A stretch of 64,000 bases of DNA, from positions 5,456,001 through 5,520,000 of the forward strand of contig JBPQGU010000016.1 in NCBI GenBank assembly GCA_051362555.1, read 5' to 3'. The first letter of the stretch is position 1, and every line of letters begins with the position of its first letter. Origin of the DNA: Lingula anatina (lineage: Eukaryota; Animalia; Brachiopoda). Under the pieces are notes generated by a model. The model was not told the DNA's origin. It did not search any database and saw only the letters and a program-made list of their open reading frames with translations. Shown in pieces: positions 1 to 39,642 of the stretch. The translations under genes were made by a program, and so were the position numbers.

Positions 1-816
1 TAACATGGTGACAGGAGTTAAATTCAATGATTAGACAGTCAAAGTGCCACTTCATTTCAAGACATTTACCTGGATTTTTTTTTCTTTGAAAAAAGAAATT
101 TTTCTTTCACTTTCAGCTTTGCTGGTGATATTTTAAAGAACAAATGTCCAGAAGCACTGTTAATGCTGCACCAAATTGTTGCTATTCAATATAAATTGAT
201 AACCAGTTGTGTTTACACTTCTTAATGATGGAAGTGATGAAAAGGAAAATGCCTTGAGCTGTTTTTACATCATGTGTACTGATTTTTGATATTCAAAATT
301 TTCAATAAAGAGCTTTAAAGTGCAATAACCTCTTTTTTCATGTGTGTGTGTGTTTGGGGTGTCTGTGTGTTTGGAGTGTGTGTATGTGTGTGTGTGGAAG
401 AGAGGATGTCTTGGGAGAGGGGTAAGGACTTTTTATTGTTTTACACCTCACCCACTTATACTGGGGCTTGCGGTTACATATGCTCACGTTTGACAACTTT
501 TACTCTATCAGGAAAATGATGAACCAAGATTGAATTAAAGCACCTGTTGTAGTTAGCCTTTATTATTATTATTTAAGAATCAATTCAGTTGCTAAATGTA
601 CAATTCATAAAGACTATAGGTGCACTCTTTTCATGGACACAAAGCTGTGACAATGTAAATTGTGACTTGAATTTTTTTTTTTGCTTCTACTCTACCTAAT
701 ATCATACACCAATATTCCTGTAATTTAAGAGCAAACAGACCTTTTGTGCTGTAGATCTACATTACTCAAACAGCTGCTACAGTTTACACAAGATGCAAAA
801 AAGACCAAGAAAAGAA

Positions 817-1806
817 TTAATTAATCTCTTTTTTACTGCCTTTGTTCATTTTCTTCAACTTTTCTAAGCTGTACCAGAAGCTTTTCATGATCCCAGCTGT
901 CCATATACTTTTTACACTCTGACTCCAACTAGAATGGCTCACAATTTTAGACACACAATTTCCCACCACCTCTCCACACTCGTAATCCTTGGCACATATT
1001 CTTAAAACTTCCTCCGCATCTCTTGTCCGCTTATCCCTGTTGTAAAAATCAACTAATCTCTCTTCAAGCGTCTTCGGCAGCAGACTTAAATGATGGAAAA
1101 TTGCTGCTGGATCTTTCAGCTGCTCCAGTCTTCCTTGTGACTTACACCAGTTCACATTATCCTCATGGTCGAGGATCCCTTCGTACAGCTCACGGAACTT
1201 CTCCATATTTGGTTTGACAATATTTCTCACCTTGTTCTTGTCCTCACCAATGACCATACGGAAATCCCCAGAATAGGAGAGGTTACAGATGGTGCAGTAA
1301 AGCTCCTCCTCAGTGAAGTGTTCTGGGAGGATAATTAATGCCGTGTGCACTGCGCTGGCCAGGTTAGTATGAAGAGCTGCCTTCAGGTTCTCTCCACTCG
1401 GCTCCTTAAGGATCATCACAGGTTTGTGGAGCCTGCCGCCTACATACAGGGTGTCCCAGTCTAACAGGTCTGCAGTCAGCCGTCTTGTGCTGATTACACC
1501 ATACTTAATCAGCCTCTCCTCACACATGACACGTGAATTAAAATAAACACCAGCACCGTGTTTTTCTTGTATGTTGGCAACTCTTCGGCTGCCGAGATAT
1601 TTCAGGAAGGAATAATGAGAGCGATTTTGAGCAATATTAGCACGGTGCCACTCCACTGGGTCATCCACTACAAAGAAGAAATCTAGCATGTTTTTGGTTG
1701 GGTCTGTGTGCCCCAGTTGTTTGAAGACCCCTGAGCCATATGCAAATGCCATGTGCTGCTCTGGGAAATGGGAGATAATCTGTTTATACAGCTGTCTTGC
1801 TGCCAT
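817..1806 (-). CDS. TAMM41: Mitochondrial phosphatidate cytidylyltransferase (Tam41/Mmp37), single coding exon
   Basis: ORF with AFAYGSGVFKQ, MLDFFFVVD, GAGVYFN, IKYGVIS, LLDWDTLYVGGRLHKPV, LSYSGDFRM motifs; ATG at 1806 in AAAATGG context (the track's 1848 start is a GTG). Confidence 0.95.
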   Translation of the reverse strand: MAARQLYKQIISHFPEQHMAFAYGSGVFKQLGHTDPTKNMLDFFFVVDDPVEWHRANIAQNRSHYSFLKYLGSRRVANIQEKHGAGVYFNSRVMCEERLIKYGVISTRRLTADLLDWDTLYVGGRLHKPVMILKEPSGENLKAALHTNLASAVHTALIILPEHFTEEELYCTICNLSYSGDFRMVIGEDKNKVRNIVKPNMEKFRELYEGILDHEDNVNWCKSQGRLEQLKDPAAIFHHLSLLPKTLEERLVDFYNRDKRTRDAEEVLRICAKDYECGEVVGNCVSKIVSHSSWSQSVKSIWTAGIMKSFWYSLEKLKKMNKGSKKEIN

Positions 1807-1981
1807 TTTGATGACCTGATATCCTAAAAGATGATGTCTCGAATACACAAGAAGATATAAAACTGATCCTAAAAAATGAGAGAGATATCCTTTTTCAAAA
1901 ACTCCTTTTATTATGTGTTACTCAATAGAATGCAAAGTATGTGAGTGATACCGAAATAATGTCACACAGACTATTAATTAA

Positions 1982-2230
1982 TTATCCACGTTTTGGTCCT
2001 TCATAGAACACTCCACCCCCTTGGACCCCAGGGGTTTTCAGCGTCTCCAGCTGGCGTTCTCCTCTTCTCAACAGGTAATCTATGTGCATAATGTTACTCT
2101 TGGGTACTGCCGCATTTTTCTTAAACTCACTGCGAATCATATTCTTGAGTCCTGGTTTTCCTTTTGTGGCTGTAAGCATATCTCTATACAGACTGAGAAC
2201 TCGGAGCTGTACCTTGCTGTATCTGACCAT
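1982..2230 (-). CDS. SDHAF1: Succinate dehydrogenase assembly factor 1 (LYR-motif protein), 82 aa, single coding exon
   Basis: SKVQLRVLSLYRDML..GKPG....IRSEFKKNA.VPKSN..HIDYLLRRGERQL parallels human SDHAF1 SRLQRQVLSLYRDLL..GKPG....VRAEFRQHA.LPRSD..RIEYLYRRGRRQL. Confidence 0.92.
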   Translation of the reverse strand: MVRYSKVQLRVLSLYRDMLTATKGKPGLKNMIRSEFKKNAAVPKSNIMHIDYLLRRGERQLETLKTPGVQGGGVFYEGPKRG

Positions 2231-3583
2231 AGTTTCTTGTCACATAAACATTTTGCAGGCAGACTTCATGCAACTGTGCTTTGCTGAAAAGGTGATCAAT
2301 ATGAAAATCTAGTTAATAAAAAATAAGATAAGCATATATAAATGATGTTATATAATAATACACATAGAATACATTTCTTATGTCTGGGAATTTGAGATCT
2401 GATAGGACTCAATAATGACAGCTGATGTTACCACCAAACTAACAATGACACATTGTCGTGTCCGACATAGATATCTTATGATGTAACATGTTGTGGTCCA
2501 ATAGTTCTCAAGTAATGTGGCAGCCTCTTTGTTTAACGCCGAGATAAAGAAATTAATTATACAATTATAGGTAGTTAAAGTTAGCGTCACTGACCATACA
2601 TATAGATAAGAAATAAGTATATAAGTGATACCAAGAGAGGGAAAGGGGAGACATGTACAGGAGAACAACAGAGAAGAGGAGAGGAGCGACGGAGTACGGA
2701 GCAAGAAGTAATTTAGGAGAACTAGGAGTTGGAGACTTCACGTAGAATATGTAGCTACCAAACGTCAACAAATAAATTGTTTAACTGGTCATCTGTGGAC
2801 TTGGGTTTTCTTTGAGCGACCTTATGTAAATCTGACACGAACCCTGGAATCTTTAGATTGCGCTATCCACAAATTTAGACGAAAACGTAATGTCCTATTT
2901 TGAGCCCACACTTGAATAAAGCATTCAAAATTATATAAGTTTAGGACATTCATTCCATATGTATATGAAAATGTTCATTACAACATGATATAATCTGTGG
3001 TTTTAAACAAATCAGAGTGAAGGAAACGTACAGTATACTGTACTCAGTACTGGTATATCATCAAATTGAAGATTGGCCAATCTGAGTAATGGTAACATTA
3101 ATCAATTTAACAACAAACAATCATGAATAGCAGATAACAGCAATGTTGCAACTTAAGTCAGTTCTGATGTTCTCTTTGAGAACATTTACCAATAGGTCTT
3201 TAAAATTATTTAATAAAATAATTGTTGACATTTGACTTTGATGAACATCACAAAACAATATACTGACCACAAACAATGTCAATAACTGTACCAGTAAAAT
3301 TTAGTTGTTTTGATAATAAAAATGCAATACTTTAGTTTTTCATTCTAAATGTAATCAATGTATCATATTTTTACAAATATTCTAATTTCTACGGGAAAAA
3401 GCAGACGAGGGTCTCCCGCTCCAAGCGTGAAGCACCTCACTCAGTTTGCAAGCGAGGGTGTGAAACATGACCGAATCGTGCCTAATTATTAAGCTAGAAA
3501 CAACAAATCTAAATATTTTCCAAGGCTGTAATTTTTACAATTTTTTTGACGATGCAAAGTATGTTAAGAGTTTTATGACTTAC

Positions 3584-3975
3584 CAGTGCAAAGATATTCT
3601 TACTTAACCTGACAAGTTCTCATTACATAGCACGTTTTGCTTGAAGACCGCTAACAACACTTTAAAATAATATCCTGTTCTGAATTTATCACTCTTAATA
3701 TTTAACTGCCCTATATAGGTCGTATTTATTTTTGTTGAATTTTAAATGCAAATTTTTATGTTTAAATGAATGACTGATTAAAATAAGTATGTAAAACACG
3801 ATAAAAACGGAAGATGTTTTAAGCGGTCATAACCTAATTTCCACTTTCACGCTGCTACTTTCACGACGTGATCATGCATACTTCAATCTCTTAATGTTTT
3901 TGTACTGAAAATAGTACATTATTGCCCTTTTTGTCATAACAATCGTTCCCATTCATAAATATAATTATCTGGGTA
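3584..3975. promoter_or_regulatory. Putative bidirectional promoter plus non-coding first exon of SDHAF1/TAMM41 (donor CTG|GTAAGT at 3584) and TASP1 5' UTR
   Basis: Consensus minus-strand donor at 3583-3578, TASP1 ATG at 3976, locally CpG-richer sequence with CGGAAG and ACGTGA motifs. Confidence 0.5.
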
Positions 3976-6900
3976 ATGGCTGATGATGGTATAGAAGGTT
4001 TTGTTGCAGTGCATGCAGGTATTTGATGGACAGAATTTTCAGTTCTGTTGCGTCTTTTCACTGTCCGACATGTAGCTCTCAGTGCAGTGTATCAACATTT
4101 ATAATACTAATAGTAGGAACGAGTGGTTAAATGTAGCTGTTGTACAGTGGTAATATTACAGTATTCATTGAGTGGAAAAATTAAATTGCCCAACTGGCCG
4201 ATCCTGTGATTTTGCGGTATTTGCATTTTGTTTATTTTAATAATTAAAATATTTACACATACACGTACATGTATTTTTACTTTAGCATTAGCAATACTAG
4301 TATTATTATTATTCTAGTTTAATGATTAAAATATTTACACATAAATGTATTTACACCTACATGTATTTTTACTTTAGCATTACAAGCTAGTATTCTTAAT
4401 ATTCTAGTTTTGTAGAATTGGCTGTACAACAACAAAATTAAATGCAGATCATTGTGTGAAAAGATCATCCACATATTTGTTCTGAGTCCTTGATTACGCT
4501 TAATTTACACTTAAAATTTTGTTTAAGTAAAATGGTAAAAACAGAAATATTGGTAGTACAGTGTACTGGTATATGTATTACTGTGTACACTTGCTAGTCG
4601 ATTAATTTTGGTTTGTAATTTACAATATGGTTCATTTGGCATCATTTGATATGTTTACATTTAGGAGCAGGGTTTCACTCACCAAACAAAACACAGCTGT
4701 ATTCAGAAGTCTGTCAGCTTGCATGCAAAAAGGTAATTAATTAAGCCAGCCAGGGCATTTATAGTAGCTCCTGTAATATATGTTTTGATCATGATAAAGG
4801 ATAGTGCATAACTAAATTTCTCTTTTCCAAGTGAAATGATTATTTTTCACCTGTACATGTAAAATTCTTTCAATTGAACACATTGTGAAAACTCTGTGAA
4901 TAGGTATATAATTGATGCAGGCCTAAATCACAGATAGATCATTTGTGTGTGGGTTTTAGTGTTCAAGTGTTTTATGGTCCAAACTAAAAAATTGTATGGT
5001 TTGAAACTGTTTTATGTGTTTATTTAGAGGTTTAATGGTTTCATTTTTGAAAAGCAAATTTTACCAGAAAAGAAGCAAAATATTGGCACTCTCTGGCTGC
5101 TGGTGGTGATGATTTAGAGATGTTTTCATGACCTTTAAGACCAGTGAAACTTTGGATAAATTATCTTTAAAGACTGAACAACCTGTGTTGCACCCATTGA
5201 GCATTTTATGTCTGTTTAGGCAGCAGAAGCTCTACATGACAAGAAATGTGCTCTTGACGCTGTTGTAATAGCAGTGACTCAACTAGAAGTAAGTGGTGAC
5301 ATTTGAGATAAAAATATAAGTAAAATTTCTTCACTGGTAGAAACTTAGGATAAAAACATCATTGTCTTATACAAGTATAACGAGATGTTTTAAGAATAAA
5401 AGTTATCAAAAAAAGGTAAGATGAATAAATACAATGTAATACCATTTGATGCAAATTGGGACACTTCATTTTAAAGTTTAATATTTTATTTTTCTGCACA
5501 ATTTAGATAAGATAAAAAGATAGATATGAGTACATGTAGCTGCCATGATTGATGTGTTAATTTGTGTTCCAGAACAGTGCGTGTACCAACGCTGGGATTG
5601 GTTCTAATCTGACACTAGATGGCACTGTGGAGTGTGATGCAAGTGTTATGGATGGCGCTTCTCTAAAGTTTGGGGCTGTAGGGGCCGTGGAGGGTATGCT
5701 CACATTATGATCACTATTGATTTTTGTCCTGTTAACAGTAACACTAATGATAAACTGGTGGGGGGGGGGGGGGGGTCAAATAAATGTCATTTCTTTGTAT
5801 ATTATCAAAGTGTTATTATTCAAGTAAAGTTTACAGCATATATATTAAGTGTATACGTCAGTGTCAGCTTTATAGTTTTGTCTCAGTCATGAGTGCATGC
5901 AATATGAATGTAATATGTCTTCTTTTATAGGTATTAAGAATCCTGTGAAGCTTGCAAGCTGTTTGTTGACAGAACAGAAGAAGGGATATTTATCTCTTGG
6001 CAGGGTGCCACCGTGGTGAGATGGATATTAAAATAATTATATTAAAAAAATTATCAAAATAGAACATTTTGCTTAAATTTGATTTATCTTTTAGTGTTTC
6101 AAAGGCAAAATCAAAAAAATGATGTAGATTGGTGTGCTTTCAATCTATATCATTTCTTTGATAGTTTTATTTACAGTGGAGCAGTAAATTTATCAATTTT
6201 CCTGATTTCTTATAAATCCTTTACTGACTGTGTGCTACAGTTTTGTATAAAGATAAATATCAGATCTTGTAATTAAGCATTGCAGGTTTGATAATTAGTA
6301 CAGTTTATATAAATATTAGGTCTTGTAATGAAGCAATAAAGGTTTGATAATTATTACAGTTTATATTAATATTAGGTCTTGTTATTTAGCAATGCAGGTT
6401 TGATAATTATTACAGTTTATATTTCAGTTTTCTTGTTGGCAGAGGAGCTGTGGCATGGGCTGTTGAACACAATATAGAAGTGGTAGAGAAGAAGGACCTC
6501 ATCACAGGTCAGGATGGCAGCTAGGGGCTGGTTTACAAAAAAAGTTGTTCACTAAGCCACAGTTTTGTCCATATTTAGGCATGTTTACCTATACTTGGAA
6601 AATTGACTGAAATTACCATGTAAAAATAAAGAAATGTTTTACCTGGATGTCTTCATTAGTGTAATTTTTTTTGCCTCTAATTATCCTTTCCTTTGATTTA
6701 CTAAGTGCTAGATATCTTGATTATTTATGTCCAGACTCCTCTCTGCGTTCATACAGAGACTACCAGCGGAGACTGGACAGGGCAGAAATGGGACTGGCGG
6801 AGCCCAAGAAAATAAAGAAAGATGTCAAGATGGTGGAGGTAATATCCAGTTATGACTGACATTGAGAGTGATATTGACAGTTTACTTGGAATTCATTATA

Positions 6901-9900
6901 AGATTTTATGTCAACATAAACATTTTTTGTTTTGCATTTACGTATATATTTACAATATATTCCCTTTCTTCTTATTTAGATGTGTAAAATAATGTAATAA
7001 TTTAGGGGATTTCACTAGAGTGGATAAGATCTTCCTTAATAGGCAGTCTCTGTTCTAAATATCTAATATGCAGCAATTATTTTAAAGTTAATTAATATAT
7101 CATCTTTGAGATAATGTAATTCTTTTTACTTCAAGGAAGATGAGAGTACATTGTTAGACACGGTGGGGGCTGTGTGCCTCGACTGCCAAGGAAATATAGC
7201 GGCTGCCGTGTCTAGTGGAGGAATAGCATTGAAATGTCCAGGCAGGGTGGGACAGGTATGTTAACACTGAAATATCAAATTAATATTCTACAATATTATC
7301 CTATGTTCAAATTGATATAAAGTTGCAAAACCATTGTAAACATTGCTTTCTTAAAGGTACATATGAACTGGGCATCCATGGAGCTTGGATTCCCAGTAAC
7401 ACATATAAACCACTTCTACTAGTTTCTTATACAACTCAAATAAAAGAGTTGAAAACTGACACTTCTTTATTAAAAATTCTTGGCTGTAAATTTGACCTAC
7501 TTAATTATCTGACCTTCTTTGTTTGCCCAGTTTATATGCAGCACTGCAAGCAAACAGAAAAATTTGTTCAAATATCCTTTTTTGGCTAATATGAAACAAT
7601 ATCTTTCGGTATTTCTTTAAGTGATACTATTTGAAAAAATGTGTTGACATTTGATCGACTTTTGTAGCCAAAAATTGAGTTCATATGCATCTTTAAGTAA
7701 TTGTTGTAAGTGTTATTGAAAATGAACACGGCAAGTATGCATATTTGTCACTGCCCCTTGTATGATGATGATGATAATGGTTTTGTTTACAAATGTATCT
7801 CATTTGATTTAGAAACTGAATTGTCTATGTTCTGTTTCCCAATAAGGCAGCAGTGTTTGGTTGTGGGTGCTGGGCAGATAATATGAAAGGTGTCACACCT
7901 GGCGTGGCAGTCAGTACTTCAGGTAAATAGGTCTTTAAAGGCAAAAATATATACTTAAAAGTACTTACAGTTTTTGATTATAATGATTTGTGCTTTTGTC
8001 TTTCAAATAAATATTGGCAGCTGAATGACTTTTAACAAAATGTTTCTTTGCTCCATTTTTTTAAAAACATGCAAAAAATTTTTTCCTGTGATCATTGCTC
8101 TATGGAACAATGACACAAGTCCCTCACCCTCACTTTATTAAGCCAGTTTTGGGTGTCTTTCAGGCTGTGGAGAGCACCTCATCTACACCCAGCTGGCCAG
8201 GGAGTGTGCCCTTGAGGTCAGGGGAGCAGACGACATTTCACAGGCTGTGACAGATGTGTTCTCCAGGCAGTTTATAGGTATTCAGTTTTACATTTCACAA
8301 TCACAGCCATTATATGACCTACGTATGTATGCAAGAACATTTTTCTGCATTTTTACTGTATAAAAGATTGGGTGAATGGTTGCTGGGTTTCATATGAAAT
8401 GTTCTGAAGGGGGTAAAATTCAGTGGAAGGGGTTCCTCTTTCTTTTAGCAAGAGCGTCCTGGTAGTCCAAAGTTTTGTTGCCATGTTGCTTTACCAATAA
8501 CTACACACGTAAGTCATGCATTAATTAGACCAACAAATCTTTGGAGCAATGAACCTTCTGGCTATTGCTACAGCCCCCTTTAGCCATGACTATTGCTACA
8601 GCCTCCTTTAGCCATGGCTATTGCTACAGCCCCCTTTATCCATGACTATTGCTTCAGGCCCCCTTAGCTATGGCTATTGCTACAGGCCCCTTTAACCATG
8701 GCTATTGCTACAGCCTCCTTTAGCCATGGCTATTGCTACAATCCCCTTTAGCCATGGCTATTGCTACAAGCCCCTTTAGCCATGGCTATTGCTACATGCC
8801 CCTTTAACCATGGCTATTGCTACAGCCCCCTTTATCCATGACTATTGCTACAGCCTCCTTTAGCCATGGCTATTGCTACAGCCCCCTTTAGCCATGACTA
8901 TTGCTACAGCCTCCTTTAGCCATGACTATTGCTTTAGGCCCCTTTAACCATGACTATTGCTACATGCCCCTTTAACCATGGCTATTGCTACAGCCCCCTT
9001 TAACCATGGCTATTGCTACAGCCTCCTTTATCCATGACTATTGCTTCAGGCCCCCTTAGCTATGGCTATTGCTACAGGCCCCTTTACCCATGGCTATTGC
9101 TACAAGCCCCTTTAGCCATGGCTATTGCTTTATGCCCCTTTAGCCATGGCTATTGCTACATGCCCCTTTAGCCATGGCTATTGCTACAGGTCCCTTTAGC
9201 CATGGCTATTCAGGAATATATTCAGGACCTATTCTTATAGCTTTATGTGGTAAGCTGATTGGTCTTTTTATCTCAGTACAATGGCTTTTCTCTTTTTTAC
9301 AGAATCTGATATGTTATCAGACCAGCTAGCTAAATATGGTGGTGCAATAGTTTTAAAATACTCAAGTAGTGCAGCAGAAAGAAGAGAAGGTGAGTCTGTC
9401 CTGTCTTCCCTCTACTCAACTTTTGATTTAATTTAGTAAGAACATGGCTTCCTTTTAATACCACATTAAAACCAGATTCTTATATTTGAAATCACCAAGT
9501 CTTCAGTGTGACCAGTAGCCAGAGTTGTACAAAGAAGAGAAAACAGTTTTATAGAGATGTTAAAATAAGTTTAATATCTTGATATTGACATTACAGTTGA
9601 ACTAGTTTGGGCCCACACTACAGAAAGTATGTGTATAGGTTACATGAAGACAGGGGATCATAAACCAAAGGTAAATTTTGAATGTGTGGATCCATGAAAT
9701 GAATCTGTAAATGTAATAGTATTTTTTTTCACGACGTTTGTATTGAATTTTTGGTGTTACTTTGAAGTCAAATTGAACTGTTTTCAAATAATAATCAATT
9801 TAAAATTCTGTTGATGGAAACAGATACTTTGCAAGTTTTTGCTTATGTTTAATTTTCTAATATTTTTGTTGTCACAAGACTATTGTTTCAAAACACTCCC

Positions 9901-9993
9901 TGTCCTCTCCAGGTACATATCAGCCGTATGCCGTCCACCTCTACCGTAGGACAAACAACCTCTGTAATGGGAAAATACTTTCATCTCAGGTAG
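3976..9993 (+). CDS. TASP1: Threonine aspartase 1 (taspase 1). Exons approx 3976-4018, 4665-4732, 5220-5288, 5573-5693, 5931-6015, 6428-6507, 6735-6838, 7136-7255, 7847-7922, 8164-8277, 9303-9389, 9597-9670, 9913-9993
   Basis: Spliced translation gives [36 protein letters not shown]|TVGAV (autocleavage Thr nucleophile), [47 protein letters not shown]; GT-AG boundaries keep the frame. Confidence 0.93.
4241..4411. repeat. Direct duplication of about 85 bp in TASP1 intron 1
   Basis: attaaaatatttacacata...tacatgtatttttactttagcatt...tagtatt...attctagttt occurs twice. Confidence 0.75.
6266..6422. repeat. 56-bp tandem repeat (about 3 copies) ending at the TASP1 exon 6 acceptor
   Basis: ggtttgataatta at 6285, 6341, 6397. 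Confidence 0.8.
8560..9210. repeat. 28-bp minisatellite, about 23 copies, TASP1 intron 10
   Basis: Unit atggctattgctacagccccctttagcc; junctions form the palindrome tagccatggcta. Confidence 0.95.
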
Positions 9994-12900
9994 CAGGACC
10001 ACAATGGAGAAATTAAAAGGCAGTGAAATCTGAGTCTATGAATATTTGGTCAGGCCAGATTGTGCATGGTAAATAATACTTTGACTTCTATGTGAATGTT
10101 AGTAGCTAGGAAGAAAAGTGTAATATTCAGTGTTGTTGCAGCAGAGGCAAAAGCAACTTTGAGAGCAACACTGATACAAGAGAGCTGAAAGTATTGCTAG
10201 CATTGAACAATATATTAATGCCAACACAGCTAAAAGACAGGGAGAAGAAGATGGCAAAGAACTCATTATCCAAACCATTCTCAAGACTACCTTTTGAATA
10301 GTGTTTAATTCATTAAAGCTGAAGTTATTTTTTTCTCTATCGGCAGCTTGTTTCTTTCTGCATGATCACTTAAAAATCTATAATGCATTAATGATATTAA
10401 AATAGTAGTGTCTCGGTGTTAAAGGATATATGAGACCAATATTATTTATGTATTCATTGTATTTTTTCCCCTTAAAATCTAACATTGATGACTCTTAGAT
10501 CCTACACTAAAAGAAACTATTTCTTATCCGAGTTTTTTCAATTCCAGTTATGTGACAAAAACTTAAACAAACAGATCACCAAGCCTTACTTTGGCTTTCT
10601 TTTAAAAACATTTATTTTGCAAAAATAATATAATAAACTTGATGTTTTTAATGGAAATAGATATGTATTCCTAAAAGGAAGTAGTGTGATTCACAAGAAA
10701 AGCTGAAAATAGTCAAATAATAATAATTAAATATTCAAGACAATGAGATACTCAATCAGGTATTTAGTGAGGTACCTACACGTCTTCATAATCTGACCTT
10801 TGAAACGGTGACCACATTGTTCAAAGAAGACAGGGATTCTGTCCTCAAGACAGATTAAATATTTTTGATAACTAATCATAATATACTCTTCTGCAGCAAA
10901 GTGACTGTAGAACTATAAAACAGTTATAAATTACAGTAATAACATGAAGAACTAAGCTGTTAAATGGCTGGTTAACAATTTAATTTCAATATGAAACAAA
11001 ACTGGTTTCGATGAACTTTTCCCTGACCAATGAAAATCCTAGTGTTCAATTTGCAGGAAAATATATGTGCATCCCTTCTACTGTTGCTAAGGGAACACTT
11101 GATTTGCTAAGAAATAAACTACTTTACCCTGTTAGTGGTACCTGCATCAGTGATTACAAAAACTGCATGCAAATATAATCTTCATGTGGCATTATAACAG
11201 CCCTTCAAGGTCCAGTCCCTTACTCCAATTCAACCACAGTTTATATATATTTGTACATAAATCAGTTCATCTCCAATCTTCTGTAAAATCCCTTTTTAAA
11301 TCCACAAAGGTCATGTGTTGTCAGCTACAGGTGCTTTTGGCCAAATAAAACTTGGCTCACAATGGTGTCCCTGCTACCAGTAACATTAGTCTTTTTCACA
11401 ATGTTAATGTTTTACTGGTAAGTACGCTGTCTTATCAGGATACAATTCTAAGCCACATTCAGCTATTTTTTAACCATTTTAGGGCTAATTTCTAAAAATG
11501 GACAGCTTAACAGCAATGAAATTGCAATCAAACTGCTAACTTATGGTCAGCTGATTATATTATCTTAAAAACATTTTCTCCATTGATAAATGGTGTTGAA
11601 TGCAGATTATGTGAATTCATGTGGTCTGCATTCAACAAGGAATTGATGAAATATATGGAATTACAATAAACACATCTAAATGAATTCAATGACAGATTAA
11701 ACACATTCAAAAAGTGCCAGGTCCTTTTTCCATACACTGGATATATTTGATATAAAAGTAATCATATCTAATGTCTTTCATAAAGTGTAAGTTATTTAAT
11801 TCTTAAGCATTTATATAAAAATAAAAAGCCTTAGGACTGATAAATCTGAACATGATTCAAATGAACATCTATATGTAAAAAATAAAAATAAAACTTGTCC
11901 AAAGGTGCATAAATACAGAAAACCTTCAAAATTCTTTTGAGAAAAGGTTTATGCATTTTAATGCAGCTGTAATTGTAACCCAAGTAAATTCACATATATG
12001 CACTCTATATCAAAATTTATAGGCCTGGACTGGAATAAAACTTTTTAAAACATAATTAACATCAACAGCAACAAAAACAAAATTCCCCGCCTTAAAATTT
12101 TCACAACAAGTCACAACCATTCATCTTTTACATTCTAATCTTTGTATCACAGGCACATAAAATATCCTCCCAGCAACTTATATAACAATGCATAATGATA
12201 AATAACTTCTTGGTGCATACTTGACTGATGGAACATATTTGGTGAATAAGAAATGGAGTCACAAGCAATATATTGATTGTCGTGATGGTAGATGTGGTGC
12301 AAAAAAATGAAGCTCATAAAACCATATTGTGACACTGTCCAGCTTAGTTTATTATTTCACCGTGATAATAAAACTTCTCCCTTCTCAGAACTGAGGCTGC
12401 TGTTGACCTCTGACCTCCATCAACCTTCAGGCCCCTTTTCATTTGACCTCTGACCTCCACCAATCACCAAGCTTTTGACTGTCCAGTAAGAGCTGAGGCT
12501 GCTGTTGACCTCTGACCTCCAGTATTTAGGGGGAGGATGATGTCCACCATGGGGTCCTCATCTTCATCTTGTACACCACTGGACAGCTCAGTGGCCTGGA
12601 AACAGAGCAGAAGACAGAATTACCCACCAAACTTGCACTCATAGGAGCCTATTAAACCTTTCAAACTGAAAGCTTTGTCTTAAAAATAAAACCAATTTTA
12701 AAATGTGCATCACCAAATTTTGATACATTTACAGTGTATGAAAACTTATGACATCATCAATTAAGCACTATACATTTTATAGCAAAATCCTGCAAAATAA
12801 TTTAAACTGTATCAACAAAATAATAAATTCCCTTTTTGGAAAAAATTCTTCAGCACAAAATCAAACAAACCAAAACTAATAAATTAATACCTATCTCCAA

Positions 12901-13887
12901 ACAAACCATGTCAGCACAACGTAAATTGGATATACTTGCAACAAAATTTAAAAATTAAAACAGTTTTAGATACAAAAATGAAAGTTACAGTGATATTAAT
13001 ACATTAGAATTCATTCCTTCTACAAAACAAAACTTGGGAGATAAAAAAAGACCACTGTAAAGCTTACAGTTAAACTGGTTAAGCTAATGTATATTTTCTA
13101 GAGTTCTTAGTTTACACACTCTGCGTGTGTGCTCTATGTCAATATATCTGTGTACCTACCAGCACCTACCTCAGCTAACTGTGACTACATCTTCAACTGG
13201 TGACTTGGGTTAGACTTGAAAAGAAGAAAACACAGGCAAGTGCAGCTATGCAGTGAAATAGCAAGTGAGGCTAGGACTAAGTCCTAAAGTGAAAGCACTG
13301 GTTCTGGCAGACGTTTTATCAAAATATTATATCTCCTCTTCCTCTTATAACAGAATACTATGTGGTACATAATTTTGCATGCAGGTTATTCACCAATGTT
13401 TATACTATATGTCCTGCAATTAAACAGAATTAAAAATTTTCAACAGAGAAATTTGTCTTTGATTTCCAATCAAAATTCAGACTTGATCTCTCACTGCCAG
13501 CACCAGTATTTATTGCTATAATATTGAATTGCTGAGGCACATGTATTATATGCAACATCTGCAGATGGTAAAATTGAGTGTGGCAATTTCATGTAATGTT
13601 AACTCTGATGTAAATCATACTTTCAGAAACAAACTCTACAACATTGCACCATTTCAATCAAGTGCACAATCAAATCTACAGCCCTTCCTACCAGTGATGA
13701 GGCATCTTGAGTCCATCTTTTCTCGGTTAAACTATCATTTCCCAATGTAACTGTGTAAGTGGAAAATGCATGCAAATGAAATACTCAGAAATCTCATGCT
13801 ATTACTTCAAATCCAACTGCAAAAACGCTCCCCTGTGTCAAACAAGCACACTCCACCCTACTGGCACCATGAGTGTGTGCCAGAACT

Positions 13888-39642
<25,755 letters not shown>

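Follow-up and report, generated by a model that had tools for sequence, protein, structure and literature searches.

How are SDHAF1, which serves complex II assembly, and TAMM41, an enzyme of cardiolipin-precursor synthesis, two unrelated mitochondrial proteins, produced from two intronless open reading frames (ORFs) that follow each other closely on one strand of a brachiopod contig? The locus belongs to a 64,000-nt stretch of Lingula anatina DNA (contig JBPQGU010000016.1, positions 5,456,001 to 5,520,000), referred to here as the window, whose own numbering is used throughout. A reading made from the letters alone (hereafter the sequence-only reading) had named the two genes, placed them about 175 bp apart on the same strand of a single transcription unit, and proposed a splice/polyadenylation switch: a non-coding exon would be joined either to an SDHAF1 exon polyadenylated within the gap or, by skipping that exon, to TAMM41, a read-through dicistronic mRNA being a side option. 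The arrangement is as described (exactly 175 nt, minus strand), and the side option appears from short-read coverage to be the main form. The switch is mostly wrong as a mechanism, and the pair is most likely carried by a constitutive dicistronic mRNA shared across phyla. Our overall reading, which we regard as probable, is that both proteins come from this one mRNA and that TAMM41 is probably reached by reinitiation. The elements needed from the outset are:

1982-2230, minus strand: SDHAF1 (LYR family) coding sequence (CDS), 82 aa, intronless, matching PF05347.
1807-1981, minus strand: intercistronic spacer, 175 nt, 30% GC, without AUG, transcribed unspliced.
817-1806, minus strand: TAMM41 (mitochondrial CDP-diacylglycerol synthase) CDS, 329 aa, intronless, with a strong start context.

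Nine RNA-seq runs, all short-read, are listed under the species label, and seven of them were analysed (labelled X1-X5, X7 and X8). About 6% of the reads of X1-X5 and about 25% of those of X7 and X8, from unspecified tissues, were used over positions 420-4320, with a fine-scale examination of 1600-2320; isoforms below about 5% of the junction reads, or confined to unsampled tissues, would escape such a survey. The single joint among those listed over 420-4320 is 3584>2283, with 39, 4, 6 and 48 reads in X1, X4, X7 and X2, respectively. Within 1600-2320, loose read ends bearing exon 1 occur at 2284 alone (69, 65, 8 and 5 reads in X2, X3, X5 and X8). The donor predicted at 3584 is thus in use and closes the shared non-coding first exon that had been foreseen; the acceptor predicted at 2308 is not used, the actual one (2283) lying 25 nt further downstream. 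The resulting transcript adds the following parts:

3584-3641, minus strand: non-coding first exon, starting at an approximate 5' end somewhere in 3641-3694.
2284-3583, minus strand: leader intron, 1300 nt, GT-AG; joint in 4/4 runs, loose ends at 2284 in 4/4.
2231-2283, minus strand: leader part of exon 2, with a short upstream ORF (AUGs at 2269, 2251 and 2245, stop ending at 2240).
420-816, minus strand: TAMM41 3' untranslated region (UTR), with read depth declining from 812 to 420; AATAAA at 564-559 and 437-432.

At the 5' end, read depth is 14-16 in the bin 3564-3694 and 0 in 3695-3825, and five X1 molecules end at 3641. At the 3' end, the hexamers at 564-559 and 437-432 probably serve as the poly(A) signals. 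Between the two CDSs, the lowest depth per 25-nt bin is 45 in X2, 33 in X3 and about 8 in X8 (sum of the two directions), X5 being flat at 8-12; for comparison, the 3' half of the SDHAF1 CDS reaches 32-47 in X2 and 45-62 in X3. In the stranded runs, the reads are assigned to minus-strand RNA. No joint internal to 1600-2320 was found, and the unbroken same-strand coverage with its single junction bears out the one transcription unit. Two non-overlapping ORFs in one processed exon structure, as found over the seven runs, are one mark of a dicistronic mRNA in the FlyBase sense, and it is very probable that both ORFs stand on the same molecule.

Two read patterns were considered as further processing and discarded. 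The reads at 2385-3039 do not look like intron retention: they come from both strands, carry long loose ends and resemble repeat copies from other places, this part of the leader intron containing multi-copy repeat pieces that draw reads of both strands. As for the loose end at 1906 in X7, which resembles a second junction, it reflects local gap divergence in the form sequenced by that study, and the X8 loose ends in the gap have the same origin. The X7/X8 study bears the same species label and is clearly divergent, with 0/126 and 8/52 reads at >=99% identity over 420-4320; its source is possibly a cryptic species. In this form the gap is rewritten and the AUG at 2269 is altered (single-nucleotide polymorphism, SNP, at 2268), junction and read-through being unchanged.

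Concerning the splice/poly(A) switch, its motifs do exist in the gap, namely an AATAAA as well as AG motifs preceding 1868 and 1823. The hexamer is described as follows:

1907-1912, minus strand: AATAAA hexamer, polymorphic, with no sign of use.

When the minus strand of the window is cut into tiles of 175 nt, 62 of the 365 contain AATAAA and 22 contain two or more pyrimidine-5-AG motifs, so such motifs are not far above chance in AT-rich DNA. Nor is their use visible in the RNA. Nothing is listed at 1868 or 1823 in the seven runs, against 48-69 main-junction reads in the deepest ones; the predicted skipping junctions 3584>1868 and 3584>1823 are accordingly missing, and TAMM41 reaches the depth of SDHAF1 with no exon-skipping read. 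No poly(A) loose ends or clusters of molecule ends are listed in 1600-2320, where the list of loose ends is complete at a threshold of 3 reads at 2 starts. The hexamer itself is altered by a SNP at 1910 (27/50 reads in X2, 25/45 in X3, 12/12 in X5), is rewritten in the divergent X8 form, and neither it nor ATTAAA occurs in any of the seven related gaps described below. Assuming SNP phase, the share of reference letters before and after the hexamer goes from 0.43 to 0.42 in X2 and from 0.41 to 0.54 in X3; the AATAAA haplotype is not thinned downstream, and there is therefore no sign that the hexamer, and with it the proposed SDHAF1 polyadenylation in the gap, is used. Such a design exists elsewhere, since the fly Tam41 orthologue CG33331 (PMC4736822) is annotated as sharing its 5' UTR with CG33332 (PMC4528330, File S2). 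As the main form in the sampled RNA the switch is refuted, and in any form we consider it highly improbable.

The names of both genes are upheld by Pfam and by their nearest relatives. The short ORF matches Complex1_LYR (PF05347, E 4.9e-9), with the LYR motif at residues 14-16 of its 82 aa. Its closest Atlas clusters score 0.94-0.95, two of them named SDHAF1, whereas LYRM4 is at 0.85; among the 150 phmmer matches listed, the 15 whose names were checked comprise three SDHAF1, one generic LYR protein and 11 unnamed proteins. Both R55 and G57, in register with the vertebrate SDHAF1 P0133 (alignment A1), are present, the human disease alleles being R55P and G57R (PMC7700678); G57 is retained in just 3 of the 8 linked SDHAF1 copies. 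By its sequence the short ORF is thus SDHAF1 (LYRM8), nearer to it than to other LYRM subfamilies, and its presumed function, the binding of SDHB and promotion of SDHB Fe-S maturation, is that of the literature (PMC7657662). A PDB sequence search with SDHAF1 gave nothing useful, and a word-index search had no match among 5.8 billion clustered proteins; Lingula TAMM41 is present in that same collection, which suggests that Lingula SDHAF1 is unannotated.

The long ORF matches Tam41_Mmp37 (PF09139) with an E value of 6.6e-113 over profile positions 2-322 of 322 and is 98% identical to L. anatina TAMM41 XP_013422051.1. These matches identify it as the orthologue of TAMM41/Tam41, the mitochondrial CDP-diacylglycerol synthase (PMC4736822). 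In Lingula and the annelid-like copies hardly anything precedes the catalytic domain, whereas several molluscan TAMM41 proteins (P0043, P0110, P0287, L021:785) bear long, presequence-like N-terminal extensions. In the displayed rows, from which the SNPs were taken, 5 of 7 SNPs in SDHAF1 are synonymous (P 0.008 vs 23% possible), as are 12 of 16 in TAMM41. This pattern of purifying selection suggests that both ORFs are translated.

How would ribosomes reach TAMM41 on a dicistronic mRNA? In the proposed scheme, the short non-coding exon ending at 3584 would be spliced to a long last exon, from 2283, carrying SDHAF1 and then TAMM41; ribosomes would finish SDHAF1, resume scanning past its stop and start at the TAMM41 AUG, the predicted output being higher for SDHAF1 than for TAMM41. 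Upstream of the TAMM41 start lie eleven AUGs: the leader has five, two of them in exon 1 (3628, a start-stop, and 3623, opening 7 codons); then come the SDHAF1 start and five inside its CDS. The SDHAF1 start context is strong (A at -3, G at +4), and a purine stands at -3 in 8/8 copies. All upstream ORFs have ended by 1978, leaving 171 nt or more to the TAMM41 AUG. Because of these 11 upstream AUGs, the strong SDHAF1 start, the early-ending upstream ORFs and the AUG-free spacer, reinitiation is favoured; given a dicistronic mRNA, we put the chance that TAMM41 is reached mainly by post-termination reinitiation at slightly better than even. With both ORFs in the last exon, the mRNA would also be spared exon-junction-triggered decay. 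Polycistronic transcripts without a junction after the first stop have been proposed to be decay-immune (PMC3951408), and since no exon junction lies 3' of the first stop, the window mRNA has this very layout; escape from decay may explain why TAMM41 is intronless in the linked lineages.

The same dicistronic mRNA could instead deliver TAMM41 by leaky scanning, shunting or an IRES (internal ribosome entry site). The AUG-free spacer, a property of only 8 of the 365 tiles, counts for these routes as well, and leaky scanning is the mechanism tested in fly sloth1/sloth2 (PMC9681215) and algal bicistrons (PMC11291117). In those cases, however, the context of ORF1 is weak and upstream AUGs are few, whereas Lingula has A-3/G+4 and 11 AUGs. 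An IRES sits badly with the related spacers, which measure 21-84 nt in 6/7 loci and share 9 nt exactly at most, as well as with the Lingula spacer, less structured than its shuffles (minimum free energy z +1.4). No common motif or stable fold was found among the window and seven related spacers, a calicivirus-type TGGGA element occurs in only 2 of these 8, and Rfam gave no match over 1-15000. We consider this group of mechanisms unlikely, though a serious competitor to reinitiation.

Metagenome contigs scanned with an alignment of TAMM41 (39/64 parts covered, best 80 of 306 matches kept) provided the comparative view and showed the two genes adjacent elsewhere as well. In 7 of these 80 loci, a complete SDHAF1 ORF lies directly upstream of an intronless TAMM41 on the same strand, two of the seven TAMM41 copies being truncated at the contig end. 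Because intronless genes are favoured by the scan, the coincidence of linkage with a TAMM41 lacking introns does not count as independent evidence. The gaps measure 57, 58, 44, 84, 21, 33 and 402 nt, and in 6/7 loci an acceptor-like site precedes the SDHAF1 AUG by about 120 nt at most, as in the window. Pairwise identity among the eight SDHAF1 proteins is 42-65%, and the linked loci therefore come from distant species. In a FastTree of TAMM41 (52 of the 80 loci and 40 database proteins, 28 low-identity loci among L051-L080 being omitted), L018 and L021 adjoin molluscs (support 0.99), L002 groups with Paralvinella (0.95), and L001, L003, L037 and L048 fall in a mostly unnamed group that includes named annelids (0.87). 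Provisionally, these placements may be called mollusc-like and annelid-like.

Within the clade of named animals, SDHAF1 is present in 7 of 22 loci. The 15 without it are a 13-locus clade (up to 2.1 kb upstream searched, two members uninformative), L007 and L023 (43 nt upstream); no SDHAF1 was found upstream in the remaining 58 of the 80 loci. From these comparisons, the SDHAF1-TAMM41 link appears to be old and to have been lost in some lineages. The divergence of the brachiopod, mollusc and annelid phyla dates to the Cambrian or earlier. That the dicistron descends from their common ancestor, with TAMM41 dependent ever since on a restart after an 82-codon, strong-context, functional ORF, is a tentative idea that we rate below an even chance. 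Several loci without upstream SDHAF1 (L007, L004-L016 and L042) are annelid-like and have an intronless TAMM41; they are possibly relics of the dicistron after relocation of SDHAF1. The L007 copy is at zero tree distance from Paralvinella. In the unlinked loci inspected (L005, L007, L010 and L016), an acceptor-like site is found immediately before TAMM41.

The same comparison bears on a further alternative, in which splicing or stop read-through turns the two ORFs into a single fusion protein, or they are parts of an operon resolved by spliced-leader trans-splicing. Merged LYR+Tam41 proteins do exist among the 120 listed TAMM41 homologues (2320 found): three of them, from Pomacea canaliculata, Potamilus streckersoni and one ENA entry, have N-terminal 71-80 residues 39-51% identical to the window SDHAF1, and in L021 one stop codon only separates the two frames. 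Pomacea, however, has a second model (XP_025104205.1) giving TAMM41 its own N-terminus and no LYR domain, from which we read the fused entries as gene-predictor merges of adjacent genes. A search for longer fused forms (alignment A1) found none, a weak result, as the three known merged models were also missed. The frame offset between SDHAF1 and TAMM41 is not constant: the window has 1, and relatives have 0, 1 or 2. Finally, no joint falls within 1600-2320, and foreign 5' sequence (spliced leader) is missing from reads of the gap, where X2, X3 and X5 show no loose ends at all. Of the explanations considered, this is the one to which we give the least credence.

Several observations weigh against the dicistronic mRNA with reinitiation. 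On the RNA side, reads of 150-151 nt face a gap of 175 nt, so no read links both CDSs. Unbroken short-read coverage would also arise from two overlapping monocistronic mRNAs, with the TAMM41 start either in the gap or within the SDHAF1 CDS, and an SDHAF1 3' UTR extending into TAMM41. A rise in depth of about twofold at 1700-1875 in X2 (110 vs 45), X3 (91 vs 33) and X1 (52 vs 31), all from one study, fits such a pair, and only 45 of the 159 dicistronic loci in FlyBase are exclusively dicistronic, most having alternative monocistronic transcripts (PMC4528330). Neither X5 nor X8 shows the rise, and both CDSs contain bumps of comparable size; library bias is the simpler explanation, though a minor internal start or an overlapping TAMM41 mRNA may contribute. 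Against overlapping mRNAs also stand the lack of molecule-end clusters and poly(A) loose ends in 1600-2320 reported above, the absence of AATAAA or ATTAAA between 1906 and 590, and the gaps of 21-58 nt in five relatives, which leave no promoter room outside the SDHAF1 CDS. Overlapping mRNAs consequently seem improbable to us, though less so than the switch. On the side of translation, the longer ribosomes take over the upstream ORF, the less they are believed to reinitiate (PMC7619398), and an ORF of 82 codons is a long one in this respect. Furthermore, an AUG is present in 5 of the 7 related gaps, in weak contexts, its ORF overlapping the TAMM41 start in three of them; pooled, the related gaps hold 9 AUGs for 14.4 expected, a weak depletion. 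The pair is also not universal, since L007 and the L004-L016 clade have no SDHAF1 in up to 2.1 kb upstream.

Beyond the dicistron, the window carries a divergent gene of the Asparaginase_2 family on the plus strand (3976-~9950), starting about 335 nt from the 5' end of the dicistron; its exon 7136-7255 matches PF01112 (E 1.8e-10). From its motifs, we take this gene to be TASP1-like. The divergent spacing of about 335 nt suggests a bidirectional promoter, likely shared by the dicistron and the TASP1-like gene:

3642-3975, no strand assigned: putative bidirectional promoter region, between the transcript 5' end near 3641 and the plus-strand ATG at 3976.

An intron of the TASP1-like gene holds a tandem array of ~29-nt units (window ~8545-9210, read by eye). 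Further along, two minus-strand coding exons (32225-32737 and 34721-35248) have 3' ends that are apparently tandemly repeated into the next intron, with repetitive open frames.

If the ancestral reinitiation dicistron were true, complex II assembly would be tied to inner-membrane lipid supply through translation, possibly in a stress-tunable way, decay surveillance would keep TAMM41 intronless, and SDHAF1 would be hidden from annotation in many lophotrochozoan genomes. The link may be either regulatory or merely tolerated compaction. In practice, mollusc pipelines merge the pair into a false fusion, and apparent lophotrochozoan losses of SDHAF1 may be annotation gaps.

No description of an SDHAF1-TAMM41 pair was found in the literature searched, whose coverage leaves out most subscription journals; this dicistron is apparently undescribed, the dicistronic type itself being known. 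The closest parallel, to which the sequence-only reading aptly pointed, is the human MIEF1 mRNA, in which the product of a LYR-family upstream ORF (L0R8F8, PF05347) precedes an unrelated mitochondrial protein (PMC4383229, PMC7657662). In both systems one mRNA encodes a LYR mitochondrial assembly factor and, downstream of it, a mitochondrial protein to which it is unrelated, but the Lingula pair involves the SDHAF1 subfamily and a TAMM41 partner, both in one last exon, and its translation is predicted. In green algae, LYR assembly factors also recur on conserved bicistronic mRNAs, such as TOM22-like with SDHAF3-like (PMC7896298); there, however, SDHAF3 is downstream, and the mechanism that was tested is leaky scanning, in which a weak ORF1 start is bypassed (PMC11291117), whereas the Lingula pair has a strong ORF1 start and many AUGs. 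In Drosophila, where 159 dicistronic pairs are annotated (PMC4528330) and transcripts with conserved upstream ORFs are enriched for mitochondrial proteins (PMC2276209), sloth1/sloth2 likewise encode small mitochondrial factors on a dicistronic mRNA of an animal; the two are linked in certain invertebrates and separated in jawed vertebrates (PMC9681215). Unlike SDHAF1 and TAMM41, which are unrelated and belong to different pathways, the sloth genes are paralogues 5 nt apart acting in one complex. As for CG33331 (Tam41) and CG33332, they resemble the Lingula locus in that a Tam41 gene has its promoter and 5' UTR in common with a neighbouring gene, but are annotated as a shared 5' UTR, the design of the sequence-only reading, and not as dicistronic. 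The Lingula pair is not orthologous to the MIEF1, algal or fly dicistrons. It extends, as a cross-phylum animal dicistron, a recurring theme in which LYR assembly factors travel on the mRNA of another mitochondrial gene and, lacking the leaky-scanning marks of the tested cases, it offers a natural system in which to test reinitiation after a long functional ORF.

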